Shown here piece by piece: positions 8,984-32,033 of a stretch of 64,000 nucleotides of DNA. The position numbers were made by a program, and so were the translations under genes. Numbering within the stretch: position 1 is the stretch's first letter; every line of letters begins with the position of its first letter. This stretch comes from Escherichia phage JM10: sequence record PP400777; one strand, given 5' to 3'. The notes below the pieces were generated by a model. It did no database searches. It was not told where the DNA came from and saw only the letters and a program-made list of their open reading frames with translations.

Positions 8984-9454
8984 TTAATCATGTTTCCACA
9001 CCCCATCAGTATTTGACCAAAGTCGCTGATTATCTGATCCTCGCCACAGCTTTTTAGTCGGAAGATTTTTCTCATACTTCCCATCAATAATAACATCAAC
9101 ATATTTAAGCATTTCTAGTTGTTTAATATCTTCAAACTTATATCCTGTCCACAACCAAATGCTTTTATTTGGATAAAGATTTTTAATAGTTTGAACCACA
9201 GAGTGAATCACATCTCTGTTATCAGGATAGAGAGGGTCACCTCCGGTTATAGTCAATCCTTCTATATAATCATTATTCAAACATTCAATTAATTGTTCTA
9301 GTGTTTCACCAGTGAATGGAATACCATTTCTAGCATTCCATGTTGATTTATTATAACACCCTTCGCATTTATGCAAACAACCTGTGACGAAAAGAACGAC
9401 CCTGCAACCAGGGCCATTCACAAAATCGCAAGGATAAAATCTATCATAATTCAT
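8984..9454 (-). CDS. nrdG: anaerobic ribonucleotide reductase activating protein NrdG (radical SAM)
   Basis: 156 aa; radical-SAM cysteine cluster CLHKCEGCYN. Confidence 0.9.
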   Translation of the reverse strand: MNYDRFYPCDFVNGPGCRVVLFVTGCLHKCEGCYNKSTWNARNGIPFTGETLEQLIECLNNDYIEGLTITGGDPLYPDNRDVIHSVVQTIKNLYPNKSIWLWTGYKFEDIKQLEMLKYVDVIIDGKYEKNLPTKKLWRGSDNQRLWSNTDGVWKHD

Positions 9455-10730: not shown

Positions 10731-11775
10731 CATTATATTCAGCATGAGTCGCAAATTCATGCCCGTTTATATGAAACAACAAAATTTGGATAGTCCATAG
10801 ATATGCAACGTTCTTTTATAGTGCTAGGATGAAAATTTAGCGCTTTAGCTGCTTCTATATAAGACGTATACTTAATACCGTCAACAACCACATATTCAGG
10901 AACTTTATGAATAGTAGTCTTAATACTCAAAACAAGAGGATGAGTTTCGACTTCACTTTCAGTGCAATTTAAATATTCCGCTGCTTTTTTAAAACTTCTA
11001 AAAGTTTTATTTTTAAGCTTTATCGATACTTGTTTTTTACTTTTTCGACTATTGATATTATTTTGCACATGTTCCTTAGATCTTCCGTTTTTAGCATAAT
11101 ATTCAGCTACAGAAGATTTTATATTGTTTTTATGAGATTCGGATAACACTTTACCCTTATGAGCATCTCTTAATTTTTGAATATGTTCTTCAGTATCCGG
11201 ATGCTTATAAAACTTTTTACCGCCTATGGATTTATTTAAACATTTTTTGCTATAAAAATATTTACGTATGACCTCTTCTTCATGTTTTAATGCATCTTTA
11301 TAACTATCAAATGTTTTTAAAATTATCCATTTAGTAGGTGTATCAGTTTTTAAGCGTTCATTTATATACTTAGATGACGTTGTGTAAGTTTTCCAGTTTG
11401 TGGGCTTGTTTTTAATTGTTCTAAATTTTTTATAACCGATATAAATGTCGCCATTAGAAAACTTAACTAAGTATGTAAATGCGTCTTTATCTTTTATTTT
11501 AGTACAACGTCTTTTTATCCATTTCATTGTTTCACCTCGTATTCATAAGATAATCTTATTTATACAAGATGACTGCTGCATGTCGCCATGCAGATTAGAC
11601 TATATCTTCATCTTTCGATGCCGGCCGTTTCGAATAGCATTAGCTTCTATTCTACACCGCTACATTCATCACGGTTAGTCGTTAGGCATTTAGTTCAAAA
11701 GAACATTTAGCACGGGATTGTCTACTAGAGAGGTTCCCCGTTTAGACCGGTTTTACATGAGCCTGAATTAAATTA
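10731..11775 (-). mobile_element. group I self-splicing intron in nrdD carrying a homing endonuclease ORF
   Basis: Conserved group I core on the minus strand (TCTAAACGGGGAACCTCTCTAGTAGACAATCCCGTGCTAAAT, AAATGCCTAACGACTA); P1 pairing of exon UAUGAGU with IGS GCUCAUG gives U-G at the 5' splice site; intron ends …GAATATAATG. Confidence 0.8.
10757..11527 (-). CDS. intron-encoded GIY-YIG homing endonuclease (I-TevII-like)
   Basis: 256 aa; GIY-YIG-like N-terminus (YLVKFSNGDIYIGY), NUMOD3-like basic repeats, I-TevI-like C-terminal DNA-binding module. Confidence 0.8.
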   Translation of the reverse strand: MKWIKRRCTKIKDKDAFTYLVKFSNGDIYIGYKKFRTIKNKPTNWKTYTTSSKYINERLKTDTPTKWIILKTFDSYKDALKHEEEVIRKYFYSKKCLNKSIGGKKFYKHPDTEEHIQKLRDAHKGKVLSESHKNNIKSSVAEYYAKNGRSKEHVQNNINSRKSKKQVSIKLKNKTFRSFKKAAEYLNCTESEVETHPLVLSIKTTIHKVPEYVVVDGIKYTSYIEAAKALNFHPSTIKERCISMDYPNFVVSYKRA

Positions 11776-12313
11776 ACTCATACGCCTGGAATGCATCGTA
11801 TACATCTTTTTCTGTTTTAGATTGAGCATAATTCAACGCATCAGCGATTTGCCATTTTTCTGCATCCTCAATATGTTTTGCATAGGTGCGTTTAACATAA
11901 GGAGAAAGAACTTTATCTACATTCGCAAATGTAGTTCCGCCATACTGGTGTGAAGCAACTTGTGCGGTAATTTGTGCCATAATTGCAGTAGCAACACCAA
12001 TAGATTTAGGCGTTTCAATTTGAGCATTGCCTAATTTAAATCCATTCTCAAGCATCCCCTTTAAATCGACTAAACAGCAATTGGTAAACGGAAGAGCAGG
12101 AGAATAATCAATATCATGCATGTGAATGATTCCACTTTCATGCGCATTCATAATAAAAGACGGGACCATATTTTTGGCAATGTGCTTAGACACAATACCA
12201 GCCATAAGGTCCCGTTGAGTTGGAAAAACACGAGAATCTTTATTAGCATTCTCGTTTAAAAGATCTTTATTAGTTTTATGAATCAGTCCTTCAATTTCTT
12301 TTTCAATTTTCAT
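11776..12313 (-). CDS. nrdD: anaerobic ribonucleoside-triphosphate reductase NrdD, exon 1 (N-terminal part)
   Basis: N-terminal 179 codons; the in-frame stop at 11768 lies in the intron just past the 5' splice site. Confidence 0.85.
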
Positions 12314-19195: not shown

Positions 19196-20182
19196 TTATT
19201 TATAGTAAGAATTATGATTTTCGAGATAGACTTGCTCAAGGAAATCATCCCAGAAACTCATATCTACTTTTTGTTGCATACCATTCTTGGCAGCTTGTTC
19301 CGATGCTTGTTCAACTTGGTCAACGATATCTTCTAGGAATTCTTGTACAGTTTTAAACGTATGTTTACCAAGCTTAACATCGAGAATAAATGGAGCATCC
19401 TGAAGTGGGTAAACCAGGTCGCCGGTTTTGTAAATTTCCAATAATTGAAGTCCACCACGACATGCATGACTCAATGCTTTCCAGTCAATACCTTCGTTGG
19501 CTTCAGCCTTACGAGCACGTTCGCCATAGTTCTCTTCCAGTTTAACCAGGATGGCATTGAACTCTTTATTGGTTAACGTATCTTGGAATTTACGGTCTAA
19601 CAGATTATAGAATGTTTGCTTACCTGTTTTCTCGTTTTCGGTTTCAACCCACGAAGCAAATTCACCTACAGGCAGAACATTCTTCATATGTGATAAACGA
19701 ATTACTGCACCATTATCAAAGTATTGTCCCCATTCATTAGAACGTTTAAGGGCTTGACGAAGAACAGCCAGTCGAGAACCCTTGACACCGTATTTAGAAG
19801 CTTGCTTACGGACATACCCTAAATAAGATTTCATGTTAGTGGTATAGAAACGAGACCTGTTATCTTGAATATACTTCCATACATCAGGCAAATCAGATTT
19901 AACTACTAGACTTTGTGGAGTGTGAAGCATATCTAATGCGACGGTTTCACCATCCGCAGCTAGTTTAAAGAAATATTTGAGACTATATAACTCATGGTCC
20001 ACGTCGTCTTTTGTGTTCTTAGAAGATGTGTTATTCGTGTTCTTGCTCATGTGTTCTTTAACGTTACCGGACAAGATATCACGAGCATGAGGGACATAAA
20101 TTTCTTTAAAATCGACGTCAGATTCAGGAGTAGACGTTCCATAAAGGTGGCTACCAAAGTAAGCCTTAACAATCGTTTTCAT
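19196..20182 (-). CDS. nucleotidyltransferase-fold protein (Pol-beta superfamily-like)
   Basis: 328 aa; N-terminal FGSHLYGTSTPESDVDF fits the G[SG]x(9-13)DxD minimal NTase signature. Confidence 0.6.
   Translation of the reverse strand: MKTIVKAYFGSHLYGTSTPESDVDFKEIYVPHARDILSGNVKEHMSKNTNNTSSKNTKDDVDHELYSLKYFFKLAADGETVALDMLHTPQSLVVKSDLPDVWKYIQDNRSRFYTTNMKSYLGYVRKQASKYGVKGSRLAVLRQALKRSNEWGQYFDNGAVIRLSHMKNVLPVGEFASWVETENEKTGKQTFYNLLDRKFQDTLTNKEFNAILVKLEENYGERARKAEANEGIDWKALSHACRGGLQLLEIYKTGDLVYPLQDAPFILDVKLGKHTFKTVQEFLEDIVDQVEQASEQAAKNGMQQKVDMSFWDDFLEQVYLENHNSYYK
19197..19204 (-). promoter_or_regulatory. late promoter candidate (TATAAATA)
   Basis: Exact TATAAATA on the minus strand, inside the 3' end of the upstream ORF. 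Confidence 0.45.
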
Positions 20183-20580
20183 TATTTAGCCTTATATTCA
20201 AGAGTAGGACAGACTTTTTCTTTACGAGCTTTAAGGTATTCACCTATTAATGATTTCTTACGTTCAATAGGCTCAAGTCCATTTTTAATTCGTTCTTGGT
20301 TTTGCGCAATGAGCTCAATTTCTTTATAATATTTTCTGTCGTTATATTTGTCTAACAACCAAGACGGACCAATTACTAACCCGGTAGCAATAAAATCCAT
20401 GACTGCTACAATTAAAATGCCTAAACCAATTGAAGCCGGAACTAATGTCCATAGACTGCTAAAAACAAAGAATTTAGTTAAAATTTCCTGGCAAATGATT
20501 GTGACTGCTGCTAAAATCACAAATCCAATAATTGAAGCAGCCAATACCGGGATTAACGTTTTCCAAAAATAAGCACACAA
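20182..20580 (-). CDS. membrane protein
   Basis: 132 aa with about three hydrophobic helices. Confidence 0.5.
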   Translation of the reverse strand: MCAYFWKTLIPVLAASIIGFVILAAVTIICQEILTKFFVFSSLWTLVPASIGLGILIVAVMDFIATGLVIGPSWLLDKYNDRKYYKEIELIAQNQERIKNGLEPIERKKSLIGEYLKARKEKVCPTLEYKAK

Positions 20581-20664
20581 CGTTTTCGGACGATTCTATG
20601 TACTATTGAACGCGGTATAAAGTTTAAAGTGCCAAGAGTTTTCATTGATAATCATAATAATTCC

Positions 20665-21207
20665 TTATTTCAAAGTTGGGATAATAGAATCGAGATAAGC
20701 TTTAAGAGCAACTGCCTCATCTTTGTCTAATGTAATGATATGTTGACGAAGGTCATCAATTTGGCGAATAACTACGACATCACCATCTTCATAAGAAGGA
20801 TTAACGCCTAGGACTGTTGTATAGTCAGGGCGGTCCTGATTTGTAATAAAAGCATTACGGCATTTAGCCCATTGAAGTTTGGCCTTTTTGGCTGTTTCAG
20901 ATTCCATGAATTCTTTCACCTTAGTGACAAATGTTTTCCAATTATTAATAGAAAAACATTCATCTTCGGTTTCGATATTAACCCCACTATAAAGTCCGTG
21001 ATAAAAACGAACTTGAAGGTCTTCATCAATGTTAATTACAGATGCATGACCCGGTGGATTGAGTTTCAAAATCTTGTCTAGTTCCATAGGAAGAATAGTA
21101 ACAACATCATCTTCTTGCGTCAGAACGTACGCATAACCACGTTTTTCGATACATAAATCACCAAACAACTCAGTCGTTTCAATTACAGTTTTCATATTAT
21201 TCACCAA
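20665..21207 (-). CDS. hypothetical protein
   Basis: 180-aa ORF. Confidence 0.55.
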   Translation of the reverse strand: MVNNMKTVIETTELFGDLCIEKRGYAYVLTQEDDVVTILPMELDKILKLNPPGHASVINIDEDLQVRFYHGLYSGVNIETEDECFSINNWKTFVTKVKEFMESETAKKAKLQWAKCRNAFITNQDRPDYTTVLGVNPSYEDGDVVVIRQIDDLRQHIITLDKDEAVALKAYLDSIIPTLK

Positions 21208-21296
21208 TTAAAGTTTCAACAAAATTCACCAAATCATTCTGACGAGCATCAACCTGATTTCTATAAAAATTAAATAAGATTAGCTTGTTCACAGGT

Positions 21297-21406
21297 CATT
21301 TTACCATACTCGCTTCAATAAGATTCATTACACCATTTACCATGTTATACGTAAACATCGGATAATTGTATTGTATCACAACGTATACGATAAGCAAAAG
21401 TTTCAT
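21297..21406 (-). CDS. candidate small hydrophobic peptide (36 aa)
   Basis: Not in the ORF track; GGAG RBS 6 nt upstream of ATG and a PeSL-like promoter upstream; MKLLLIVYVV…. Confidence 0.3.
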
Positions 21407-21423
21407 TTTGTTCTCCATTTGTT

Positions 21424-21466
21424 TTGGTAGGACTACTATAACATAGTCCTACCAAGTTGTAAACTA
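21424..21466 (-). promoter_or_regulatory. PeSL-like early promoter + stem-loop cassette
   Basis: Minus strand GTTTAC-17-TTATAGT with 10-bp inverted repeat GGTAGGACTA/TAGTCCTACC. Confidence 0.45.
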
Positions 21467-21670
21467 CCGATTGTGTTTTAAATGTTGATAAAGTTCTTCA
21501 ACTTGTTTAGGGTCCAAAACAATTAAGTCATTTTCTTGACGAAGATAAATCCATCCCTTATCCCCAGGACCATTTTTACAAAACATCACCACCATATCAT
21601 CATCTTTAGCGCTTTCAGGTAAAAGTTCAAGTACACCGTCTTCAGATTTTCCAGTATAATCGTAAAGCAT
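21464..21670 (-). CDS. hypothetical small protein
   Basis: 68 aa from the internal ATG with GAGGA RBS. Confidence 0.4.
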   Translation of the reverse strand: MLYDYTGKSEDGVLELLPESAKDDDMVVMFCKNGPGDKGWIYLRQENDLIVLDPKQVEELYQHLKHNR

Positions 21671-21677
21671 AATATCC

Positions 21678-21857
21678 TCACATAATCTCGTTAACATACA
21701 TTTGCAATTCGGTGTGGGCGTCAGCCATCTTTTTCATAGCTCTGTTAATGTCGATGTCTCCATCTTCGCAACCATGAGCATTTTCCCAATCAGATACCGC
21801 ATTAGCGTACTCTTCAATCAAAAACATTAACTTAGAAATTTTTTCTTTACGTGACAT
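21678..21857 (-). CDS. hypothetical small protein
   Basis: 59 aa from MSRKEK…; GAGGAGA RBS; promoter cassette immediately upstream. Confidence 0.4.
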   Translation of the reverse strand: MSRKEKISKLMFLIEEYANAVSDWENAHGCEDGDIDINRAMKKMADAHTELQMYVNEIM

Positions 21858-21861
21858 AACG

Positions 21862-21914
21862 TTCTCCTCTAGTAAGTAAGGTTTACTATAACACAACCTG
21901 AGGAGAAGTAAACT
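21862..21914 (-). promoter_or_regulatory. PeSL-like early promoter; RBS is complementary to the -35/-10 spacer
   Basis: Minus strand GTTTAC-TTCTCCTCaggttgtgt-TATAGT…GAGGAGAA. Confidence 0.45.
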
Positions 21915-21924
21915 GATAGATGCC

Positions 21925-21951
21925 AAAAAGCCCCAACCTTTCGGAAGGGGC
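21925..21951 (-). terminator. rho-independent terminator
   Basis: Minus strand GCCCCTTCCGAAAGGTTGGGGC followed by TTTTT; downstream of rI; identical hairpin at 36551-36572. Confidence 0.6.
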
Positions 21952-21958
21952 TAGTAAA

Positions 21959-22261
21959 TTAGATAGATGTAGGCTCTAATTTTATTTTCATGAACTCAGC
22001 AAATTGTCTGGCAGTTTTTATGCCTTGTTCATGACATTCAAATGCATCATCACAGGGGCTATTTTTGTAATGCTTTGCCATATACTTATAGAATTTTTCA
22101 GAATTCTCGACATTTTGAATTTCAAACAAAGTATATACGTTTTTAATCCCTGATTCCATAAAGTTATCAAAATATGGGTCGATATATGCAGTACCAACGA
22201 TAGGAGTTGTTGCTGCAAAAAACCACAGCATCGCCATGACAGCTATCGCTCTTAAGGCCAT
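21959..22261 (-). CDS. rI: lysis inhibition regulator RI-like (signal-anchored periplasmic protein)
   Basis: 100 aa; resembles my recollection of T4 RI (…DPYFDNFMESGIKNVY…); located next to tk. Confidence 0.7.
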   Translation of the reverse strand: MALRAIAVMAMLWFFAATTPIVGTAYIDPYFDNFMESGIKNVYTLFEIQNVENSEKFYKYMAKHYKNSPCDDAFECHEQGIKTARQFAEFMKIKLEPTSI

Positions 22262-22273
22262 ATAGGCCTCCTG

Positions 22274-22486
22274 TTAATTTTGGCCAGTATTTATTTTTCG
22301 CCTTTGGACGGCCTTAACATCTGTGAGGTATTTTTCCAGCTTGCGCTTGCGTGTATAATCAGCTTTAGAACCAGTTTGACGGATATCCTCGTTTAAATGA
22401 GAAATAGAATGTCCTAATTCTCTTCGGATTTCATCCAATTGGGTTACAGTAAGATTACGAAGTTGTCTTTCGTTTAATTGCTGCAT
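22274..22486 (-). CDS. hypothetical protein (rI.1 position)
   Basis: 70-aa ORF between rI and tk. Confidence 0.5.
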
Positions 22487-22513
22487 ATATACCTCTTGGT
22501 TAGATATTAGTAT

Positions 22514-23095
22514 TTATAACAACCCTGTCAAATCATTCCAATGCTTCCGGCATAATGACACGTATCTATCGGTATCACCAATTTCAATTTGACTGCCATC
22601 TGTAATTGGAAGTCCGTCTTCCGTGACTCTAGCTACCATTGTGGCCTTTTTACCGCAATGACAGACACCTTTAAGTTCAACAAGCTTATCGGCAATAGCC
22701 ATTAATGCTTGAGAACCTTCAAATAGATTACCTTTAAAATCTGTTCGTAGTCCATATGCCATTACCGGCACATTGTATACGTCAACAATACGACTAAGTT
22801 GATACACCTTTTCAGTAGTTAAGAACTGAGCTTCGTCAACAAATACACAATGAATATCCTTTTGTGCTGCAGCCCATTTATAGAATTCAAAGATATCCAT
22901 GTCTTTTGTAATTATATTGGCATCCTGACGAATACCAATACGAGAGACTATTTCACCTTTTGAATCACGAGTATCAATAGCCGGTTTAAGAACTAATACA
23001 CCCATGCCACGTTCTTTATAGTTATGTGCGGCAGTAAGTAATGAAGCAGACTTACCGGCGTTCATAGCGGCATATGTAAAAATTAAACTAGCCAT
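22514..23095 (-). CDS. tk: thymidine kinase
   Basis: 193 aa; P-loop AAMNAGKS and C-terminal zinc cysteines. Confidence 0.9.
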   Translation of the reverse strand: MASLIFTYAAMNAGKSASLLTAAHNYKERGMGVLVLKPAIDTRDSKGEIVSRIGIRQDANIITKDMDIFEFYKWAAAQKDIHCVFVDEAQFLTTEKVYQLSRIVDVYNVPVMAYGLRTDFKGNLFEGSQALMAIADKLVELKGVCHCGKKATMVARVTEDGLPITDGSQIEIGDTDRYVSLCRKHWNDLTGLL

Positions 23096-23104
23096 AAGAG
23101 TCCC

Positions 23105-23287
23105 TTATAGTGAATTCACGTAGTCAATGAGTTCTTGTTCTTTCCTGTCAAATGATTCCATCAATGCGTGATATTCTTCGTCCGTCAAAGGAGCATATTC
23201 ATCGTACGCATTGGTGGCTGCTTGTTCATCCAATAGGTCATGGATAAGTTCGAACAGTTTAGCTTTCTCTTCTTTAGTTAATTTCAT
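23105..23287 (-). CDS. hypothetical acidic protein
   Basis: 60-aa ORF. Confidence 0.4.
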   Translation of the reverse strand: MKLTKEEKAKLFELIHDLLDEQAATNAYDEYAPLTDEEYHALMESFDRKEQELIDYVNSL

Positions 23288-23778
23288 TTAGGTTCCAAAT
23301 CAACAATCACAATTTCTAGTTTAGTGGAATACGTATCTAAAATCTCTTCGATGACATCCCAGTTTCCACCACCAATACCTGCACCAATTCTTGGCATATA
23401 AATTACAGGCTTTGTTATCTTATTCTTTCCGAATTCATTTAATTCTATTATACAATTCATTAAAGCAGAGTACTCAAAATTAGGTCCCGGCTCAAACTGT
23501 GTATAAAGATTAAAGCAATAAGCTTTATGGGTCTTAAAATATTTTTCATAAACCGAATAAGACCCGAGTTTAGACTCATCTCCGAATTCGGTTTGAAGTT
23601 TATCGGCTTCCAGAATTTTTGGATAAGCCTTTGCTAATTGTCCTGCTACACCAGCGCCCATTGTATGAAAACAATTACACCCATGCGCAATATTATTACC
23701 TTTAGAAAACAGGGCGACAATATCGCCCTTGATATAGTTTTTAATCACTTGCTGCAAGTCCTCTAGTATAAGAGTCAA
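23284..23778 (-). CDS. macro-domain protein (ADP-ribose binding/processing fold)
   Basis: 164 aa; macro-like motifs NIAHGCNCFHTMGAGVAGQL and IYMPRIGAGIGGGNW. Confidence 0.6.
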   Translation of the reverse strand: MTLILEDLQQVIKNYIKGDIVALFSKGNNIAHGCNCFHTMGAGVAGQLAKAYPKILEADKLQTEFGDESKLGSYSVYEKYFKTHKAYCFNLYTQFEPGPNFEYSALMNCIIELNEFGKNKITKPVIYMPRIGAGIGGGNWDVIEEILDTYSTKLEIVIVDLEPK

Positions 23779-24088
23779 CTAGGCGGTCCACCATAGAATT
23801 GCATGCTGCCTTATCTTTAGGTTCCGCCACCGAGCATTCTAATATTTGCCATTTTTTATAGTATCTTTTAATTAAGGTAGACGCCTTGAACCTACTAGAC
23901 GCCCCATCTTTTTCTCCGTCTTTATACGCATATAACAATTTTTGTGAAAAATCTACTTTACACTCTTGACTTTTACCACAATAATCAGACGCCGTTCTGT
24001 TTGTATACTCCGTTACATCAGTATATGTAGTATTAGCAAGAGCGTTAAATGAAACCAAGCCAACTATTAAAGCCAACATTTTGGTCAT
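23741..24088 (-). CDS. secreted protein (signal peptide)
   Basis: 115 aa; N-terminal MTKMLALIVGLVSFNALA. Confidence 0.5.
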   Translation of the reverse strand: MTKMLALIVGLVSFNALANTTYTDVTEYTNRTASDYCGKSQECKVDFSQKLLYAYKDGEKDGASSRFKASTLIKRYYKKWQILECSVAEPKDKAACNSMVDRLVDSYTRGLAASD

Positions 24089-24627
24089 TCTTTTATTTCC
24101 AGTAGTTTATTTGATTTAAGGTAATTAGCCTTTTCTAGGACTTCAGAAGCATATTTACTTCCAGCACTTGTCTTCCATCCTGCATTATATGAGGATATAG
24201 CTTTTCTTATATCCCCGTTATGTATATTTAACCAATAAGAAAATTCGATATAAGCCCATCTGGCTGAATTAGACCGCTTAGATAGCATTTTCTTAATTTG
24301 GGCATCAGTCATATTATAACCAAGCTGGTTAATTCTTGCCCTCATTGTCGGTAGATAATTTTGGAACATTCCATACGCATGGTGACCTTTCTTATCTTTA
24401 AGATTAATACCGGCAGATGATTCCTGCCATAGTATTGCGGCCATTATGTATCCAAGTCCTTTCTTATGCATATTTTCATGCGTTTTAAATTTTCCGTCCT
24501 TAGAAAACTGTTCCCCAAACTGATAAGCATAATTCAAGTTATCGAGTTGGACATTACTAAAAGTATGCTCGGAGCTATGTGCTGATAATGAAAGAGCAAA
24601 TAGACCAGCGAGTAGTGCTTTTCTCAT
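24085..24627 (-). CDS. lytic transglycosylase-like secreted protein (vs.1-like)
   Basis: 180 aa; signal peptide; SLT-like motif WQESSAG…AYGMFQ. Confidence 0.6.
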   Translation of the reverse strand: MRKALLAGLFALSLSAHSSEHTFSNVQLDNLNYAYQFGEQFSKDGKFKTHENMHKKGLGYIMAAILWQESSAGINLKDKKGHHAYGMFQNYLPTMRARINQLGYNMTDAQIKKMLSKRSNSARWAYIEFSYWLNIHNGDIRKAISSYNAGWKTSAGSKYASEVLEKANYLKSNKLLEIKE

Positions 24628-24635
24628 GTTTACCT

Positions 24636-25094
24636 CTAGATTTTAATCACTGCTTTAGAAGCTTTTCCTGGTAGTCGTTTATTGTTAATAATAGCCATTC
24701 TGCATTGAAGAGACTTCATTTTGAATGCTGGATTTTCGCGACAAACTGTAAGTCCTAACCAAAGATTTCCATCAGTTATTTCTAAACGGCCTGGGCGATA
24801 TTCGACACCTTCGACAAAATCTTCATCAACATCTGGACGTGCCGGCATTGATAAAAATTCTGCAACTTCTTTAACATGATTTTTTACTTTATGAAATAAT
24901 TCAAAAACGTAATTCTCATCTATTTCTCTCTGGATGGCACGATCTAAGAGATGTTGAGAATACTTGATATGAAAGCCTGGTAGTCCAAGAGACTTTGCAG
25001 CATCTTTTATACTGGCATTTATTTTGCGGAACTCCGTTTCAAAGATTCGACGGAGTTTATTACGGCGGATAAAAACGTCTGAATTGATAGTCAT
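24636..25094 (-). CDS. regB: endoribonuclease RegB-like
   Basis: 152 aa; position and size match T4 regB and the sequence resembles my recollection of it. Confidence 0.7.
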   Translation of the reverse strand: MTINSDVFIRRNKLRRIFETEFRKINASIKDAAKSLGLPGFHIKYSQHLLDRAIQREIDENYVFELFHKVKNHVKEVAEFLSMPARPDVDEDFVEGVEYRPGRLEITDGNLWLGLTVCRENPAFKMKSLQCRMAIINNKRLPGKASKAVIKI

Positions 25095-25100
25095 TTTGAT

Positions 25101-25153
25101 TTCTCCTCTAGTTGACAGGTCTATAGTAACACAACTAGAGGAGAAGTAAACTA
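25101..25153 (-). promoter_or_regulatory. PeSL-like early promoter with 13-bp inverted repeat pairing the spacer to the RBS
   Basis: Minus strand GTTTAC-tTCTCCTCTAGTTGtgt-TACTAT-agacctgt-CAACTAGAGGAGAaatcaaaATG. Confidence 0.5.
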
Positions 25154-25155
25154 CT

Positions 25156-25371
25156 TTATTGATAAAATGGAGTTAAAGCCCAAGATTCTTTAGATACTAT
25201 ATTGGCGAAATGCCTCATCTCTTCGATTTGGCGACGACGCTGGTCAGCATAGTCTTCTTCGCCTTCTTCCTTACAATCTTCAAGGTCTTCTTCAAGATAC
25301 TTTAAGTATTCACTACAAATTTTGTTGACCTTTTCTTGAAAGTCCAATAACCCAGTAATAGTAGAAGCCAT
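25156..25371 (-). CDS. hypothetical acidic protein
   Basis: 71-aa ORF. Confidence 0.45.
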   Translation of the reverse strand: MASTITGLLDFQEKVNKICSEYLKYLEEDLEDCKEEGEEDYADQRRRQIEEMRHFANIVSKESWALTPFYQ

Positions 25372-25636
25372 TAGTATTTTTCCTCAGGTCGAAATACTGC
25401 ACGACATGCCCACATGCTGGCTTCTTTTAGATGTTGCTTAGCATACTTAAGAGCCTGCACTGCATCCATATCTTCTTTGGTTTGTTGCTCTGTTTCATTT
25501 TCTTTCAAGATATATGCTTCTTCAATCAGAGCATCAAACAACAATCCAAGACGGACTTCGGCATCTTTAATAGCGTTCACTTTACCGATTTTATCATCGG
25601 TATGCGGCTTGTAGCCTTTGATGTCTTCAATCGACA
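25371..25636 (-). CDS. hypothetical protein
   Basis: 88 aa from the internal ATG with GAGGAA RBS; trimmed from ORF-track 25371..25805. Confidence 0.35.
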
Positions 25637-25851
25637 TAAGGAATTTCCTCATCAGTGGCAAGGTCATATTCGACCAATTGGATAGGCTCATTAATACCAT
25701 ATCCACGTACAGTGATATCAGTTGACGGATATTTTCCAGTAATATCACCCGTTCTAAATGCTTCAATGAATGATTGCTCGCCTGAGCAACTAAACCAGGC
25801 GGCAAAACATTTTAAAACATCTTCAGACCCTTCTATAATCAATTTAGCCAT
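25627..25851 (-). CDS. hypothetical protein
   Basis: 74-aa ORF abutting the GrcA-like gene. Confidence 0.4.
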   Translation of the reverse strand: MAKLIIEGSEDVLKCFAAWFSCSGEQSFIEAFRTGDITGKYPSTDITVRGYGINEPIQLVEYDLATDEEIPYVD

Positions 25852-26213
25852 TATAGACTCTCAGTAAAGGTACGAGCGATAACGTCGCGCTGCTGTTCCG
25901 GAGTCAGAGAGTTAAAGCGAACTGCATAACCGGATACACGGATGGTCAGCTGCGGATATTTTTCCGGATGCTTAACTGCATCTTCCAGAGTTTCACGACG
26001 CAGAACGTTAACGTTCAGATGTTGACCACCTTCAATTTTAACTTTAGGTTGATGTTCAATTTCAATTTCACGGGCATGCAAACCGTAGAAAATTTCCGGG
26101 TCTACAATAGCGTCTTCTTTAAAAGTCTTAGAGACAATAATCCGGGCTTGAGTACCGTCTTCAAAATAAATAGTGCCTTTATGCGCACCTTCAAGAATTT
26201 GATATGCTTTCAT
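25851..26213 (-). CDS. autonomous glycyl radical cofactor (GrcA/YfiD-like; T4 Y06I-type)
   Basis: 120 aa; glycyl-radical motif [13 protein letters not shown] in a C-terminal segment that appears near-identical to my recollection of E. coli GrcA. Confidence 0.8.
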
Positions 26214-26219
26214 ATAACC

Positions 26220-26528
26220 TCAATTAGAAAATAAATTTATCCAAGTTTTTTCTTTAATCAAAAATGGGTCGGAATTAAACGCCATTAAACTTTGAGTGAT
26301 TAATCCCTTAAATGGCCCATCAATAAATTCCATTTTGAAATGCGGAATACTAGTCATCAACCGTGCATTAGGAGCAGTACAAAGAACCTGCTGCCCTGCG
26401 AACGGACCTTTAGTCAAACGATATCGTTTAGGTTTAAAATGGTAAATCTCGTAATTTTCTACAAGAGCCCTTTTATTGCATACTGGGCTGTTATAACAAT
26501 ATTCAAAAACTTCAATAGTGGTCATCAT
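26220..26528 (-). CDS. hypothetical protein
   Basis: 102 aa from MMTTIEVF…; start overlaps the upstream stop. Confidence 0.4.
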   Translation of the reverse strand: MMTTIEVFEYCYNSPVCNKRALVENYEIYHFKPKRYRLTKGPFAGQQVLCTAPNARLMTSIPHFKMEFIDGPFKGLITQSLMAFNSDPFLIKEKTWINLFSN

Positions 26529-27064
26529 TGCATTCCAATCACAAAAAATTGAGGACGAGCAATACCGCCGATGCAATATTTGCTTTTGCAACAGTGTTGG
26601 ACTGTTTTAATATGGACATTGTAAATCTTATCCATATCAGGAGCTTTAATAGGCTCGTCAATTATGTACAGAATACGAGAAAGCGTTAATCCACGGAATT
26701 TAGAACCTTCATTGCCAATAAAACTACGAACAGAATCAGTAAATAAACGGAATCGAATATCATCGCTAGAATAACGAGAAAATTCTTTTTTAATGTTGCC
26801 AGCAGAAATTTTAGCATAAGCTGAAGTATTAGAAAGAACAATAACAGTTCCGCCATCATACAACCAATTAGCAGCGAAGTTAGTCACAGCAATTGATTTA
26901 CCTGATTGTCTGCCGCCGTCTAAACGAAGTGTACAGTACTGCTTGAGTACATCTTCAAATGGTGGGACATAACCGTTCTTACAAATTTCTTCTACTCTAG
27001 CATCAGAATGGTGTGTAAAAGCATTCATCAGGGATAGATAAGGTCCAGTTAAAAATGTTCTCAT
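26525..27064 (-). CDS. hypothetical P-loop-like protein
   Basis: 179 aa; GGRQSGKS Walker-A-like motif. Confidence 0.45.
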   Translation of the reverse strand: MRTFLTGPYLSLMNAFTHHSDARVEEICKNGYVPPFEDVLKQYCTLRLDGGRQSGKSIAVTNFAANWLYDGGTVIVLSNTSAYAKISAGNIKKEFSRYSSDDIRFRLFTDSVRSFIGNEGSKFRGLTLSRILYIIDEPIKAPDMDKIYNVHIKTVQHCCKSKYCIGGIARPQFFVIGMQ

Positions 27065-27130
27065 TTAGTTTCTCTTTTAGGTTGGGCCATTCCGTGGCGC
27101 ATGAATTGTCCATTTCTGTATTTACCCCTC

Positions 27131-27176
27131 CAAGTAATTATGAATATACTATCACAATTCTAGGAGAAAGTAAACT
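27131..27176 (-). promoter_or_regulatory. PeSL-like early promoter cassette
   Basis: Minus strand GTTTAC-17-TAGTAT…cttggagg. Confidence 0.4.
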
Positions 27177-27177
27177 G

Positions 27178-27480
27178 TTATTTACCTTTAATTACTTTAG
27201 CTGCTTCGATAGCCGCTTGCTGAAGGTCATCCATAGACATACCGAATTTAGAAGCAAAGTTATCAATTTTCTTTTCGACAGCATTCAAAGGCTTTGCCTG
27301 TTTACCTTCATTAGCGCCAGGAAGAGCGAGAATACGCTCTTTGTCAATATAAAGGCTTACAAGTTTCTTACGGTCTTTATCGGACAAATCATGAAATGAA
27401 TGGGCCTTTTTATTTATAGCGGCTTCTAATTTACCTGCACTCACTCGCGCTTCAGTAATAAATTCTTGATAGGTTTTCAT
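27178..27480 (-). CDS. ipII: prohead internal protein II-like (capsid targeting sequence)
   Basis: 100 aa starting MKTYQEFITEA; colinear with my recollection of T4 IPII. Confidence 0.7.
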   Translation of the reverse strand: MKTYQEFITEARVSAGKLEAAINKKAHSFHDLSDKDRKKLVSLYIDKERILALPGANEGKQAKPLNAVEKKIDNFASKFGMSMDDLQQAAIEAAKVIKGK

Positions 27481-27507
27481 GTGTTTCCTTGTTTGTTTTG
27501 ATAGAGT

Positions 27508-27538
27508 AATTATACCATATTAATACTTAAGCGTAAAC
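27508..27538 (-). promoter_or_regulatory. early promoter candidate (GTTTAC -35, TATAAT -10)
   Basis: Minus strand GTTTAC-17 nt-GTATAAT, then AGGAAA RBS and the ipII ATG. Confidence 0.5.
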
Positions 27539-27618
27539 CGTTTAAGCTTTACCGCCAGAAATAATTCCGAAGTTGTTAAAATCATATCCAATATCGTCAA
27601 CATCTACTTTAGGACTTG

Positions 27619-27804
27619 CTACAACATAAGCAATTTCACTACGTTTTGCATAGGTGTTTTGATTTCTTTACCATCGCCACCTAAGAAAGAATACCCATTA
27701 CGTTTTAATGAGCCAAAGTCTTCCGCATCACCAATGAAAGCTTTAACTTTAAATTTAGGACCTTTGGCATCTGCTTCAACGATAAATTCTTGATACATTT
27801 TCAT
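27619..27804 (-). pseudogene. internal protein-like ORF with CTS, apparently truncated or frameshifted
   Basis: 61 aa starting MKMYQEFIVEA; an alternative frame continues to 27542, suggesting a frameshift near 27640-27670. Confidence 0.35.
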
Positions 27805-27917
27805 TTTTCCTTAGTAAATTGATTTACCAAAGTATTTGTACCAAGTCGGGCGTTGAGCAATTTTTTATCTAAGCGTGCTTGACTTATCGCAATGGACGCT
27901 TCGGACGGGTCATAATT

Positions 27918-27970
27918 TCCTCCAAGTAGTTGATGAATGTATAGTATCAAAACCCTTGGAGGAAGTAAAC
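27918..27970 (-). promoter_or_regulatory. PeSL-like early promoter with 9-bp inverted repeat flanking -10
   Basis: Minus strand GTTTAC-tTCCTCCAAGggttttg-ATACTAT-…CTTGGAGGAaatt ATG. Confidence 0.45.
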
Positions 27971-27971
27971 A

Positions 27972-28253
27972 CTATTTTTCTGAAGCGCCTGAAATATATT
28001 TTTCAAGACGTTGTTTCATCAGCGAGCCGTTCTTAGCAATTTCTTCCGGTTTATCGCACATACGCAACAAGGCTTCAAGCTTAACGATATCACTGGTGCG
28101 CTCAAATTTGCGAGTATCTATCTTACTAGCAAGTTCAGAAATACGTGCTAATAGACTTTCAGCTTCAACCAAAGCTGCACCTAGCTTAGTTGCAAATGTG
28201 TCAGTAGCTTCGTTAAGAATAGATTCTGATAAAAATTCACTATATGTTTTCAT
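27972..28253 (-). CDS. internal protein-like (CTS-bearing)
   Basis: [10 protein letters not shown]… from the ATG overlapping the e stop (ATGA); the ORF-track start five codons upstream is inside e. Confidence 0.55.
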
Positions 28254-28738
28254 ATATACGCTTTCCAAGTTCCTGTTTTAAATGTTGAGATTACGCGTTT
28301 CGCGCGATTAGGTGTCTGACGATACCATTTAGATTGGGCTAGATTTACTGCCGCCTCGTCCCAACGTTTCTGTTGAAGCATACGAAGAGAATTAGTAAAA
28401 CCGGCGACGCCTGCTACACCCATTTGGAAGACCATATTGACCAATGCACATCGACGAACCGCATCTAAAGAATCATATACCGGTTTAAGTTTAGCATTAC
28501 CCAAGATTCCGCGAACGGCTTTATCAACGTCTTCATTAAATAGCTTTTCAGCCTCATCAAGGGTAATTGTACCGTTGCATTTACGACCGATAATTCTGTC
28601 AAGTTCAGCTTTAGCTACGGCTAAAGACGGGTTCTTTGTTACTAAATGGCCTATGCCAATCGTCCAAAAGCCTTCAGTGTCTTTATATAAAGTCAGTCTA
28701 AGACCTTCGTCATTACGAAGCATTTCAAATATATTCAT
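28250..28738 (-). CDS. e: lysozyme (endolysin) e
   Basis: 162 aa from MNIFEMLR…; catalytic EGLRL…YKDTEG…TIGIGH region as in T4 lysozyme. Confidence 0.9.
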
Positions 28739-28770
28739 AATACCTCCCACGTTTATAGGAGGTATTTATT
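28739..28770 (-). promoter_or_regulatory. RBS-sequestering hairpin upstream of e with embedded late-promoter-like elements
   Basis: Minus strand AATAAATA-CCTCC-TATAAACG-TGGGAGG-tatt-ATG; CCTCC pairs with the GGAGG Shine-Dalgarno. Confidence 0.5.
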
Positions 28771-28772
28771 AC

Positions 28773-29231
28773 TTATAGGAGGGTAGTGAGCACCTTATAT
28801 AATGATTTGCCCATTACATATTCCCATTGAGAAGGTTTAATTAAAGCGAATGCATCAAATTCAGGAATCTGTCGTCCGTCTGGGAATGTATGATAGGAAT
28901 TACAAACACTGTTTCTGAATTGCTCGTGCTCTACAGGGATGGTATATTGGAACAGATGAATATTCTTATTGTCTGAGTAATGATGTTCACCTAGGTCTTT
29001 CAGGAAGGCAGGGTCATATTGTGTAAACCCAGTTTCTTCTTCGCATTCACGAATAGCGGCTTCAATAGGAGATTCGCCAGGTTCGACACGGCCTTTAGGA
29101 ATATCCCACCGATGGGCTAATGCACCTTTAGGACGAGAACCAGTTACACGCCCCATGAATAATTCTTTATCTTTGGTAAGGAAAATAATACCGGCTGATA
29201 GTTCTTTCACTTTATTTTTCTTACTCATCAT
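28773..29231 (-). CDS. nudE: Nudix hydrolase NudE
   Basis: 152 aa; Nudix box GRVEPGESPIEAAIRECEEETG. Confidence 0.8.
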   Translation of the reverse strand: MMSKKNKVKELSAGIIFLTKDKELFMGRVTGSRPKGALAHRWDIPKGRVEPGESPIEAAIRECEEETGFTQYDPAFLKDLGEHHYSDNKNIHLFQYTIPVEHEQFRNSVCNSYHTFPDGRQIPEFDAFALIKPSQWEYVMGKSLYKVLTTLL

Positions 29232-29457
29232 CTCGGTCCAATGATTTGGCCATTAATTCGGACATAAATTCTTCAAGGCGCGTTTCTTTAGATGGACTTT
29301 CACTATTAGAGATCGCAAGTTTGTAATCTGCAATAGGACAGAACATATCAAGGTCCATATTAAGGTCGTCTTTGATTTTTTCTTCTGACACATCTTTATC
29401 GTATGTGTACAGATAACTATCACATGATTCTGATTTAATGTAAATTGCTATACTCAT
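29221..29457 (-). CDS. hypothetical acidic protein
   Basis: 78 aa from MSIAIYIK…; its ATG overlaps the stop of the upstream gene. Confidence 0.4.
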   Translation of the reverse strand: MSIAIYIKSESCDSYLYTYDKDVSEEKIKDDLNMDLDMFCPIADYKLAISNSESPSKETRLEEFMSELMAKSLDRDDE

Positions 29458-29945
29458 CTCAAATTCCTGCATTCGGTAATAAAACGTTCAACTTCATTAT
29501 TCTTGGCTTTTATCTTGTCTTTATGTTCTTGTAAACTACTTTTAATAAGATTAATAATGATGCCTACAGTACCTCCACCAATAATACCACCAATAATACT
29601 TACAATAGTAGATGATAATAAGATAGCGATAATATCTAGTACAGCAAAGGCACTTACTTTAGTACTAAAAAACCATACCGACGGTACAAATATAATCCAT
29701 CCTGTTATCCATTGGCACTTATTGAAAAACTTTTCAAGCTCAGCTTGGGTTGTTCGTATTACTTCATCGATAGGTTGATATCCATTAATGTATCTGTTCA
29801 CGATAATACCTGCTGGTTTGTCGATTTTAAATGCTTGACAATGGTGTTTCACTAAGTAGGATGGACATCCTGTCCAATCTACTGAATAGTATGAAATACC
29901 TTCGTCGCCATCGCCCATGTTTGACCAGTGAATTTTCTGTATCAT
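29454..29945 (-). CDS. membrane protein with C-terminal E-x-F-I-x-E-C-R junction motif
   Basis: 163 aa; C-terminal hydrophobic and Gly-rich segment, ends …ERFITECRNLR. Confidence 0.5.
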   Translation of the reverse strand: MIQKIHWSNMGDGDEGISYYSVDWTGCPSYLVKHHCQAFKIDKPAGIIVNRYINGYQPIDEVIRTTQAELEKFFNKCQWITGWIIFVPSVWFFSTKVSAFAVLDIIAILLSSTIVSIIGGIIGGGTVGIIINLIKSSLQEHKDKIKAKNNEVERFITECRNLR

Positions 29946-30631
29946 TACCAGCCTTCCATAGGGAATTCCAGATAAACTTGGGCATTGACACGAATTTCAT
30001 TGGTAATCTTTTTAACTCGGTCTGTACTACGAGATACACGTCCGAACCAACGCCATCCGTTACTAATTGCACGAGAACCAGTGTGCCATGTTTGCCAATC
30101 AAACTGAAGAAGAGTACGATCTGGAGCTTCCCATTTCTCTAGTTCACCTTTTTCAATTTTTTCGAGGACTTCTTTGTGCCACTGACGATAGATAAGTTCG
30201 CCATCAGGAATCTGACTGAACTCTGCAGTTCCTGTTGCAAAATGAGTAGGACACACATCAGCGTTAACAAGACCAAGAATATGTTCAGACAAATAGCGAG
30301 GATTGTCATAGTCAGGTTGTCCTGCAGTAATAAAGTGTTGACCAACTGGAATATCAGGGCGAGGAACATCATCATGGTGATATCCAGGAATAGCAGGGTA
30401 CCAGCCAGGCATCAGCATGTGGACTCGTGAATCAAATACTACATCCGAGTCTTTCCAATCGTCAGGAAGATTTTGGATAAAGCTACGAGTAATTGGGCCG
30501 CCATTATCAAAAGCAAAATTTAAATCGCAGTTAAAGAACATAGGCTCGTTTTTAATCTGGTCGTTTTTAATCGCATGAGCAAAACCACCTACTGCACGAG
30601 CTTGACTATTAAACACTTTAGAACTATTCAT
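29945..30631 (-). CDS. hypothetical protein
   Basis: 228 aa; GAGGAAAA RBS; His/Asp-rich segment GYHHDDVP; no family assigned. Confidence 0.6.
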   Translation of the reverse strand: MNSSKVFNSQARAVGGFAHAIKNDQIKNEPMFFNCDLNFAFDNGGPITRSFIQNLPDDWKDSDVVFDSRVHMLMPGWYPAIPGYHHDDVPRPDIPVGQHFITAGQPDYDNPRYLSEHILGLVNADVCPTHFATGTAEFSQIPDGELIYRQWHKEVLEKIEKGELEKWEAPDRTLLQFDWQTWHTGSRAISNGWRWFGRVSRSTDRVKKITNEIRVNAQVYLEFPMEGW

Positions 30632-30632
30632 A

Positions 30633-30938
30633 TTATTTTCCTCGGCATTCTTTAATGAAATTTTCTAGATTGGTAGATTCAATAGCTTTTTTACGAGCTT
30701 CTGCGTGTTCTTCTTCGGACAATTTACATTTATAATTGACCCAGACATTATGGTCAAAACTAGTCGTGGCATATAATAACAAAGCTCCGACGAATAATAA
30801 AAACGGTGATAAGAATACAAAACCAGGAACACCATCCATACTGTAAGCCTTTTGTAATACTGCAACAGAAAGAGCTACGTAAAAAGGTGTTGCAAATATT
30901 GTAAAAAGACCGATTCGATTGGTTTCGCCTAATTTCAT
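30633..30938 (-). CDS. small membrane protein ending ENFIKECRGK
   Basis: 101 aa with two hydrophobic helices; GAGGAGAA RBS. Confidence 0.55.
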   Translation of the reverse strand: MKLGETNRIGLFTIFATPFYVALSVAVLQKAYSMDGVPGFVFLSPFLLFVGALLLYATTSFDHNVWVNYKCKLSEEEHAEARKKAIESTNLENFIKECRGK

Positions 30939-30957
30939 AATATTCTCCTCATGTTTT

Positions 30958-30996
30958 AATAGGACTACTATAACATAGTCCTATAATTGTGTAAAC
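30958..30996 (-). promoter_or_regulatory. PeSL-like early promoter + stem-loop cassette
   Basis: Minus strand GTTTAC-17-TTATAGT with inverted repeat TAGGACTA/TAGTCCTA. Confidence 0.45.
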
Positions 30997-31008
30997 AGTT
31001 TTGCGAAA

Positions 31009-31965
31009 TTATTTGAAAGGTTTTACAATATTGAAATTTTGTTTGAAACGTTTGACGTAATCATCATGTCCTAAGCTTTGGTACATACTTACTACTTTGC
31101 TGTAGTTTTCCCAGGCATACTCACGGAACCAACCGGAGGTTATGCTTGTACAGACTTTTTCCAATGCCATCATGAAACTGGCTTCAGGGTTAATTTTAAA
31201 GTCATTAGGAATCTGAGAACGTTCTAATGCTAGTACACATGATTCTTCATATACACCGGCCAATTTGACCATTTCTGGTAACGATTCGAACTTCTCGCGT
31301 GAGGTCATTACTTCAGAACCATCTTTCATGTAAAATGTATAAGCCGGACGGTCTGTTAGTGCAATGGCTTCGTGAATAGTATCGTGGTCATATGTATAGA
31401 TGTCATCTTTAAAGAACGCACTTTTAGAAGTGTCAAGAACCGGGTGAGCATAGTTCAAGGTTTCTTTCTGGCGTTTCAGCATAATTTCGGTAAGTTCATC
31501 GTTCAGTGTAACACCTTTACCACGAAGATACTGAATATGGTTCATAGTCTTTAAAAAGAATGGATTATTTTTCTTGAAACGATGAGACATCTTAATTGCA
31601 AGACATATCTCAGGAGTTGCCCAGTAAAACCCGTTCAAACGGTCTTTAGTCAAATTTTTCTTGGCGTATTTTAAAAGGTCATAAGAAGACGTGAAATCTT
31701 CAGGAGTGAGTTCACCGACTAATTCACGGACATTAGTGATTGCCGGAACAATATATGCTTCAAAATGAGTTTCGCGTCCATTATGGAAGCATTTGAAAAC
31801 TTGGACATCAGGGTTATCTTGGTGAACATATACACCCATCATTTGATTTTTGAATGCATTCCAAGAACATTGGTCCGCAATAAAGTCCCAATCACTATTT
31901 TTAATAGCGCTAGAATCAATAAGACCGTGATAGTGAAGTGCACGAGAACCAATAACCAACATCAT
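31009..31965 (-). CDS. hypothetical protein (weak nucleotidyltransferase-like N-terminus)
   Basis: 318 aa; N-terminal IGSRALHYHG…NSDWDF weakly resembles a GS…DxD motif. Confidence 0.55.
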   Translation of the reverse strand: MMLVIGSRALHYHGLIDSSAIKNSDWDFIADQCSWNAFKNQMMGVYVHQDNPDVQVFKCFHNGRETHFEAYIVPAITNVRELVGELTPEDFTSSYDLLKYAKKNLTKDRLNGFYWATPEICLAIKMSHRFKKNNPFFLKTMNHIQYLRGKGVTLNDELTEIMLKRQKETLNYAHPVLDTSKSAFFKDDIYTYDHDTIHEAIALTDRPAYTFYMKDGSEVMTSREKFESLPEMVKLAGVYEESCVLALERSQIPNDFKINPEASFMMALEKVCTSITSGWFREYAWENYSKVVSMYQSLGHDDYVKRFKQNFNIVKPFK

Positions 31966-32033
31966 AATATTTTCCTCGGATTAATTCATTAACTTAAATT
32001 TCACGACATGCGATATCATATTCATCCCAGAGG

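Follow-up and report, generated by a model that had tools for sequence, protein, structure and literature searches.

The stretch of DNA analysed here, 64,000 nucleotides (nt) of Escherichia phage JM10 (sequence record PP400777) and called the window below, comes from a T-even phage of the genus Tequatrovirus and carries the gene vs.6, an open reading frame (ORF) of 120 codons with an ATG start. The product is a stand-alone glycyl-radical protein related to GrcA (YfiD) of E. coli, and the DNA that codes for most of its radical domain very probably replaced, from the host chromosome, part of an older phage gene. The gene and its signals are located as follows.

25851-26213, minus strand: vs.6, ortholog of Y06I of phage T4, coding for a 120-residue autonomous glycyl-radical protein of the GrcA type (ORF call, Pfam, TIGR04365, phrog_1209 and synteny with T4 vs.6).
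26218-26221, minus strand: GAGG ribosome-binding site, 4 nt 5' of the vs.6 ATG and overlapping the stop codon of vs.7 (read from the sequence and the ORF ends).
25929-25931, minus strand: GGT codon of Gly95, the predicted radical glycine, corresponding to G102 of GrcA and G734 of PflB (RVSGYAV aligned with 6OWR and with PflB 1H16).

The family of the product was established by profile and structure searches. The Pfam domain Gly_radical (PF01228) was recognized at residues 60-101 with an expectation value (E) of 2e-18 and 67 bits, the cut-off being 22, while phrog_1209, the group of T4 vs.6, covered the protein from end to end (E=7.7e-63, residues 1-120 on profile positions 1-121 of 121). Among solved structures phmmer placed GrcA (6OWR) first, with E=2e-42 over residues 21-120, and the C-terminus of the pyruvate formate-lyase (PFL) PflB next, with E=3e-26. 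The best NCBIfam model was TIGR04365, 'autonomous glycyl radical cofactor GrcA' ('spare_glycyl'; IPR011140), which aligned residues 18-120 with profile positions 23-126 at 158.6 bits; this score lies under the curated cut-off of 170 because the phage-type N-terminus has diverged, and the vs.6 product is therefore a GrcA homolog and not an 'equivalog' in the NCBI sense. In size and build it is a stand-alone member of the GrcA family, whose proteins have some 120-130 residues: it has 120 residues, a C-terminal Gly_radical domain and the RVSGYAV loop. An earlier note on this DNA had proposed a GrcA-type glycyl-radical gene at precisely this place, and the ORF together with the Pfam, TIGR04365 and 6OWR matches supports it. 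The gene is the already characterised T4-type vs.6 (Y06I); gene and function have been known since 2001, and reference genomes annotate the gene.

Expression of vs.6 appears to take place within the vs.8-vs.5 run. The GAGG site overlapping the vs.7 stop suggests translation within the vs.8-vs.7-vs.6-vs.5 run, and the vs.6 stop shares one base with the vs.5 start (TAATG). Scanning of 24000-29500 for promoters and terminators gave counts not above those of shuffled sequence, and none lay directly 5' of vs.6.

The two halves of the protein have different relatives. The N-terminal half, which the earlier note considered unrelated to GrcA, turned out to be alignable: both TIGR04365 and 6OWR extend into it, and its amino acid identity amounts to about 30% with bacterial GrcA and 50-72% with other T4-like genera (Jiaodavirus 72%, the CC31 group 65-70%, RB16/RB43/KP15 50-53%), reaching 90% with T4-type phages. 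This half is a GrcA N-terminus of the phage lineage, homologous to the bacterial one though diverged from it, and a ratio of non-synonymous to synonymous substitution (dN/dS) of about 0.1 within Tequatrovirus indicates purifying selection on it. A single-sequence AlphaFold model aimed at the N-terminal half had a mean predicted local distance difference test score of 37, too low for the model to be of use.

Residues 61-120 (EGGQHLNV...TFTESL), by contrast with this N-terminal half, equal residues 68-127 of GrcA from E. coli K-12 MG1655 (RefSeq genome) at 60 out of 60 positions. The near-identity over some 60 residues that the earlier note had proposed was thus borne out on the K-12 protein; the pairwise alignments it proposed gave 60/60 with GrcA and 48/60 with PflB, and the only moderate identity that it named as contrary evidence was not seen. 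The likeness extends to the DNA. Over the final 180 coding nt, identity to K-12 grcA is 97.2%; the five differences are all synonymous, and one exact run extends over 134 nt. Gene nt 179-363 matched, by megablast, all 5,426 complete E. coli genomes at 95-99% (97.8% in the best rows), and nt 179-353 showed a single mismatch, at nt 195, with grcA of E. coli SK1144, one of the best-matching alleles and assumed to be the majority E. coli allele. Phages L005, L007 and fPS-2 have no difference at all from SK1144 grcA in that segment.

The significance of these values was judged from a comparison set of 80 bacterial grcA loci and 80 viral loci. Bacteria that encode the same 60 residues are considerably more distant from the window in DNA (Citrobacter 90.6%, Trabulsiella 90.0%, Edwardsiella 88.3%, Serratia 86.1%, Erwinia 82.2%), and so are the phages RB16 of E. 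coli (83.9%), leE of Cronobacter and L015, which share the 60 residues at 84-85% DNA identity; Salmonella grcA has 58/60 residues and 81.7% DNA identity. In-register exact runs between Tequatrovirus and E. coli measured 101-137 nt, against 18-56 nt in the other phage-bacterium and bacterium-bacterium pairs. In a neighbour-joining tree of the DNA of the C-terminal half Tequatrovirus branched inside Escherichia with a bootstrap of 0.99, which became 1.00 when third codon positions alone were used. The DNA identity of this half to E. coli is therefore well beyond the share that conservation of the protein contributes. Elsewhere in the window (801-25800 and 26250-64000, 62.7 kb) megablast found no match in the 5,426 E. 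coli genomes, and the vs.6 patch is the sole host-like DNA of the 64-kb window. As tdcE is only about 75% identical to it in DNA, the donor of the patch would be grcA.

The limits of the host-like segment are sharp, and the gene can be divided into three parts.

26036-26213, minus strand: N-terminal half of phage lineage, gene nt 1-178 (residues 1-59 and the first base of codon 60), delimited by the breakpoint and informative sites.
25861-26035, minus strand: putative host-derived patch, gene nt 179-353, most of the coding DNA of the glycyl-radical domain (breakpoint, informative sites and tree).
25854-25860, minus strand: 3' edge of the patch, gene nt 354-360, again of phage type, GAG AGT CTA where E. 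coli has GAA AGC CTG (three-way comparison).

When the codon alignment with E. coli grcA was scanned by maximum chi-square, the breakpoint fell after nt 178, identity being 47% on its left side and 97.3% on its right; 0 of 2000 permutations gave a contrast this large. Informative sites were scored with the ortholog of Klebsiella phage KpnAMK2 standing in for the phage parent. In nt 1-178 they were 62 of phage type and 14 of E. coli type; from nt 179 to 353 all but one of 27 were of E. coli type; and those at nt 354 and 360 were of phage type again, so that the host tract is an internal patch, nt 179-353. The gene of the window ends in GAGAGTCTA, as does that of RB16, whereas E. coli ends in GAAAGCCTG; nt 354-360 vary across Tequatrovirus genomes. 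In agreement with this division, the N-terminal half clusters with phages and the DNA of the C-terminal half with Escherichia. The comparison of codon usage between the halves that the earlier note recommended did not discriminate: among 57-codon segments of window genes the patch falls at the 30th percentile and the N-terminal half at the 82nd, and GC content at third codon positions is 0.32 and 0.39 for the two gene halves. The lack of separation arises because the codons preferred by E. coli here mostly coincide with the A/T-ending preference of the phage.

Base-by-base comparison was carried out on 13 Tequatrovirus sequences, namely the window, T4, T2, RB10, fPS-2, FL23, PaulHMueller and six IMG/VR contigs. 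All of them contain the patch, which departs from the majority E. coli allele at 0-3 positions per sequence, most of them private. Moreover, identity to E. coli grcA is 95-99% in 632 phage records, and the matches listed in that band start at an identical base. Judging from these sequences and records, the patch is common to essentially the whole genus, T4 included. It is also found in fPS-2 (L165, nt 301-663), a Tequatrovirus named after Yersinia, without any difference from the majority E. coli allele; grcA of Yersinia is only 83% identical to the C-terminal half of the window, which is nearly that of fPS-2, and this suggests a recent history of the fPS-2 lineage in Escherichia.

A second clear host patch was not found in other phage lineages with grcA of Salmonella, of a Klebsiella metagenome-assembled genome or of the sampled bacteria. 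Salmonella grcA reached at most 83.8% identity with phage records, and the Klebsiella sequence at most 95%, with just 15 records above 90%. The C-terminal halves of Jiaodavirus, Slopekvirus and Pseudotevenvirus were at best 80-88% identical to any bacterium sampled, K. pneumoniae being outside the sample. As a separate observation, the T4-like Klebsiella phages L020, L021, L169, L170 and L171 have LLDAVEH in the C-terminal half of vs.6, as in GrcA of Klebsiella, Raoultella and Salmonella, where E. coli has LEDAVKH. In KP15, vs.6 has a 20-nt run, CTGGATGCGGTTGAACATCC, in common with Raoultella/Klebsiella grcA, at which RB16 differs by synonymous and non-synonymous changes; the run could stem from conversion by host DNA over a short tract or reflect host matching at the level of the protein.

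The age of the patch was approached by comparing the window-type and T4-type versions of the locus. They are 97-100% identical exactly across the patch and 40-85% identical in its flanks, and the last fixed difference between them before the patch is at nt 170 and the next at nt 358, nt 195 being the one exception in between. Synonymous divergence (dS, Nei-Gojobori) between the two types was 0.35-0.60 in the N-terminal half and 0.09-0.15 in the C-terminal half; for the window and T4 the values were 0.44 and 0.095. In other phage clades and in bacteria the C-terminal half has a dS at least about three quarters of that of the N-terminal half, and mostly larger (1.05 against 0.68 for RB16-RB43, 1.11 against 0.87 for E. 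coli-Salmonella, 0.40 against 0.53 for E. coli-Citrobacter), and therefore the segment seems to be under no special synonymous constraint. By these measures the patch would be younger than the split of the phage DNA that surrounds it, and either host DNA was copied more than once, or it was copied once and then passed from phage to phage.

Taken jointly with the identity of the gene as vs.6/Y06I, with the function discussed below and with this reading of its age, it is highly probable that vs.6 is an old phage gene in which a patch of 175 nt was overwritten by homologous recombination with the chromosomal grcA of E. coli. The recent capture from the host advanced in the earlier note is accordingly retained for the origin of the C-terminal coding DNA; it is replaced, as regards the event itself, by a 175-nt, genus-wide substitution within an older phage gene in place of the acquisition of a gene or domain by this genome. 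Templating by the host is favoured because the ends of the island coincide with the limits of phage-host homology. A more specific version, in which the host chromosome recurrently converts these strictly lytic, host-DNA-degrading phages over stretches limited by homology and Tequatrovirus lineages independently re-copied grcA, is a tentative proposal that we regard as possible. If true, vs.6 would be a natural and testable case of host-to-T4 recombination and a marker of the recent host history of a lineage, and it would suggest selection that keeps the phage radical domain identical to that of the current host.

The alternative that survives best holds that the common ancestor of Tequatrovirus captured the segment once, long ago, and passed it on by vertical descent, and that slow evolution makes the patch look young. 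The presence of the patch in the 13 sequences and 632 records would be expected from it, as would the single 5' edge seen in the 13 sequences and among the matches listed; within the T4-type group, furthermore, the dS of the N-terminal half (0.11-0.15) is like that of the C-terminal half (0.095). Between window-type and T4-type phages, however, the two halves differ severalfold in dS, and one fixed difference in nt 171-357 stands against flanks of 40-85% identity. Slow evolution is also at odds with the synonymous divergence of the segment in other clades, which is not slow, and an ancient copy would hardly be expected to have a consensus equal to the present-day majority allele of E. coli. 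Hence a single ancient capture is considered unlikely.

Radical proteins of this type have a described function. E. coli YfiD and T4 Y06I receive the radical from the PFL-activating enzyme, form a complex with PFL cleaved by oxygen and restore its activity (Wagner 2001, as cited in PMC8683613 and PMC13450708). The N-terminus of YfiD is disordered, and its removal lowers radical installation (PMC13450708). The gene is also one of the few ORFs common to all T4-like genomes compared, 6/6, by Nolan et al. 2006 (PMC1524935). The role of Y06I as a spare part for oxygen-damaged PFL, invoked in the earlier note, is so described in PMC8683613, and the window gene is its ortholog at 94% amino acid identity. 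From this identity, the 60/60 match to GrcA and the RVSGYAV loop with G95, we infer that the window protein would likewise rescue oxygen-cleaved PFL.

The proposed sequence of events is as follows. Oxygen would cleave the host PflB at its radical glycine, the host activase PflA would place a radical on Gly95 of the phage protein, and the activated protein would dock on truncated PflB and bring catalysis back. After host shut-off, a spare part made by the phage could thus keep PFL running in micro-oxic gut infections, which would sustain the supply of acetyl-CoA and ATP and provide formate for the phage NrdD. Formate is the reductant of the class III ribonucleotide reductase NrdD.

A different use of the protein, in the service of the phage NrdD as a repair part or radical relay instead of host PflB, has also been considered. 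The genome also codes for NrdD and NrdG, a role of vs.6 in nucleotide metabolism was speculated upon by Nolan et al. 2006 (PMC1524935), and reviews leave room for spare parts of other glycyl-radical enzymes (PMC8683613, PMC13450708). Against this, BLASTP of the protein with the NrdD of the window gave E=6, a value without meaningful similarity, and the radical loop was left unaligned, so that an NrdD-type radical domain was not recognized and repair of NrdD has no support in the sequence; the idea was dropped. Of the final 60 residues, 80% agree with the C-terminus of PflB (48/60, counted by hand) and 100% with GrcA; the T4 ortholog is reported (PMC8683613) to complement PFL after activation by the PFL activase; and vs.6 lies about 13 kb away from nrdD/nrdG. 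Service to NrdD is thus very improbable.

That no transfer occurred, and that near-identity resulted from extreme purifying selection for fit to PflA/PflB together with a common codon preference, is a suggestion of still slighter standing. Many Enterobacterales, and phages RB16, leE and L015 as well, have exactly this 60-residue sequence (100% identity), convergence in codon bias does raise the DNA identity of distant bacteria (91% for E. coli-Edwardsiella), and the codon usage of the patch is compatible with that of the phage. Nevertheless, the same protein is encoded with 82-91% DNA identity in bacteria and 84-85% in phages, against 97% to K-12 over 180 nt and 99-100% within the patch. Other clades show no particular lowering of dS in the C-terminal half, identity changes abruptly at nt 178 and not along a gradient, and the phages lie inside Escherichia on third codon positions with a bootstrap of 1.00. 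The comparisons of DNA, dS and tree effectively refute the suggestion.

Transfer in the opposite direction, by which E. coli would owe the 3' half of grcA to a T-even phage, is scarcely credible. DNA identity by itself does not give the direction. The two halves of E. coli grcA are, however, similarly diverged from those of other enterobacteria, with a dS for the N-terminal and C-terminal halves of 0.53 and 0.40 from Citrobacter, 0.87 and 1.11 from Salmonella and 0.85 and 0.78 from Klebsiella, and the gene has its chromosomal context ung-grcA-eamB conserved in all 5,426 genomes. This even divergence and normal locus argue for transfer from host to phage; the breakpoint, moreover, is in the phage gene, and sister phage genera hold a diverged version of the segment. 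An assembly chimera or contamination by host reads, for which the presence of host DNA in phage lysates and the isolation of the stretch as the only E. coli-like DNA of the window might speak, is refuted by recurrence across independent genomes, the same junctions appearing in 632 phage records that were sequenced independently, among them the T4 reference, T2, RB10 and RB14, with an intact reading frame and lineage-specific substitutions inside the patch.

Several points nevertheless weigh against the interpretation of vs.6 as a phage gene overwritten from grcA and serving PFL. Examination at the level of bases covered the 13 Tequatrovirus sequences. The pattern of ages would fit repeated conversion, one conversion followed by spread among phages, or import of the flanks from a distant phage. 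Codon usage gives no separation of the halves and is silent as an independent line, and the TIGR04365 score falls short of the equivalog cut-off. The function of the window protein would be that of its T4 ortholog, as related in papers citing Wagner 2001, and both the benefit to the phage in vivo and the formate link to NrdD are steps that we infer.

The surroundings of vs.6 are those of T4. With T4 proteins as queries, tblastn recovered the order nrdH, nrdG, nrdD (intron-split), 49, nrdC ... tk, tk.4, vs, vs.1, regB, vs.3, vs.4, vs.5, vs.6, vs.7, vs.8, ipII, e, nudE. The position of vs.6 between vs.7 and vs.5 is conserved as in T4, and other Tequatrovirus records are arranged alike. NrdD and NrdG, which the earlier note had reported from the same genome, were both recognized by Pfam. 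The neighbouring and related genes are located as follows.

26223-26528, minus strand: vs.7 (tblastn of T4 proteins).
25854-26213, minus strand: vs.6, extent by tblastn of T4 proteins.
25683-25851, minus strand: vs.5 (tblastn of T4 proteins).
8984-9454: NrdG (Pfam).
9451-10782 and 11768-12313, minus strand: NrdD, split by an intron (Pfam).

The 12 kb around vs.6 (20000-32000) are about 97.6% identical to phages vB_EcoM_G2469 and FL18, and the closest match of the gene alone is phage FL23, at 99.4%. Amino acid identity to T4 is 94% for vs.6, and around it 37-78% for vs.5, 63% for vs.7, 66% for vs.4 and 40% for vs.3; in nucleotides, identity to T4 passes from 97-100% to about 70% inside the 100 nt 3' of the vs.6 stop. 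The insert between the nrdD exons holds an ORF for a GIY-YIG/NUMOD1 endonuclease (10757-11527), just 56% identical to T4 I-TevII, and looks like a diverged form of the T4 nrdD intron with its homing endonuclease. In comparison with T4, denV is represented by a remnant, two short tblastn fragments within 27814-27938 that cover denV residues 96-137 and are placed after ipII (27178-27480), not before it as in T4. For ipIII, pin, mobC, mobD and e.2 of T4, tblastn gave no match in the window. A second match to T4 lysozyme e, on the plus strand at 43373-43864 with 40% amino acid identity, probably belongs to gp5, the baseplate hub protein, as its lysozyme domain.

T-even phages destroy the DNA of their host and are usually thought to exchange little with its chromosome; a clean and datable patch is therefore a handy measure of recombination from host to phage. 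With gene and role on record since 2001, this analysis adds no system of a new kind. The addition is one of evolutionary detail, namely that the DNA for the radical domain in the T4 genus would be a 175-nt patch templated by grcA and younger than its flanks. No earlier description of the mosaic of vs.6 at the level of DNA was found in the searchable literature, the 2003 T4 genome review and the primary paper of 2001 both lying outside it. What remains of value is a clean case of host-to-T-even recombination and the question of its recurrence, and the patch bears on the reasons why phages keep a radical domain matched to that of the host.

Comparison with known systems places the window gene within a wide family. 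The vs.6 genes of RB16/RB43, KP15, Jiaodavirus and CC31 have the same architecture, with a phage-type N-terminus at 50-72% identity, and 'formate-lyase' ORFs of T5-like phages belong, with the vs.6 orthologs of T4-like phages, to the same PHROG family, in which the C-terminus is often 95-100% identical to GrcA protein. The vs.6 genes of other T4-like genera differ from that of the window in the DNA of the C-terminal half, which is at most 88% identical to any sampled bacterial grcA, with exact runs of at most 56 nt and without a recent E. coli patch. The C-terminal domain of PflB (1H16) and TdcE has the same fold family and radical loop, with 48/60 identical residues at PflB 700-759, the part that the phage protein is thought to replace; it is built into an enzyme of 760 residues, unlike the stand-alone protein of the window. 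E. coli GrcA/YfiD (WP_000627807; nuclear magnetic resonance structure 6OWR) is likewise a small stand-alone glycyl-radical domain, identical to window residues 61-120 and nearly so in DNA at nt 179-353. It differs over the N-terminal 59-60 residues, which are about 30% identical and in the window seven residues shorter, of a conserved phage-specific type (...ARIIVSKT) under purifying selection, and in setting, the window gene standing in a run of phage genes and E. coli grcA at ung-grcA-eamB. The closest system is T4 Vs.6/Y06I (NP_049730, 'autonomous glycyl radical cofactor GrcA'), also of 120 residues, 94% identical and located between vs.7 and vs.5. Seven amino acids differ, six of them in the N-terminal half, where the window shares with FL23, L004 and L005 a haplotype that departs from T4 at 19 nt. 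The seventh, in the C-terminal half, is H73 in T4 and R73 in the window and in E. coli, and therefore identity to GrcA is 60/60 in the window and 59/60 in T4. In both genes the 3' patch is E. coli-like, and its 5' edge is the same.

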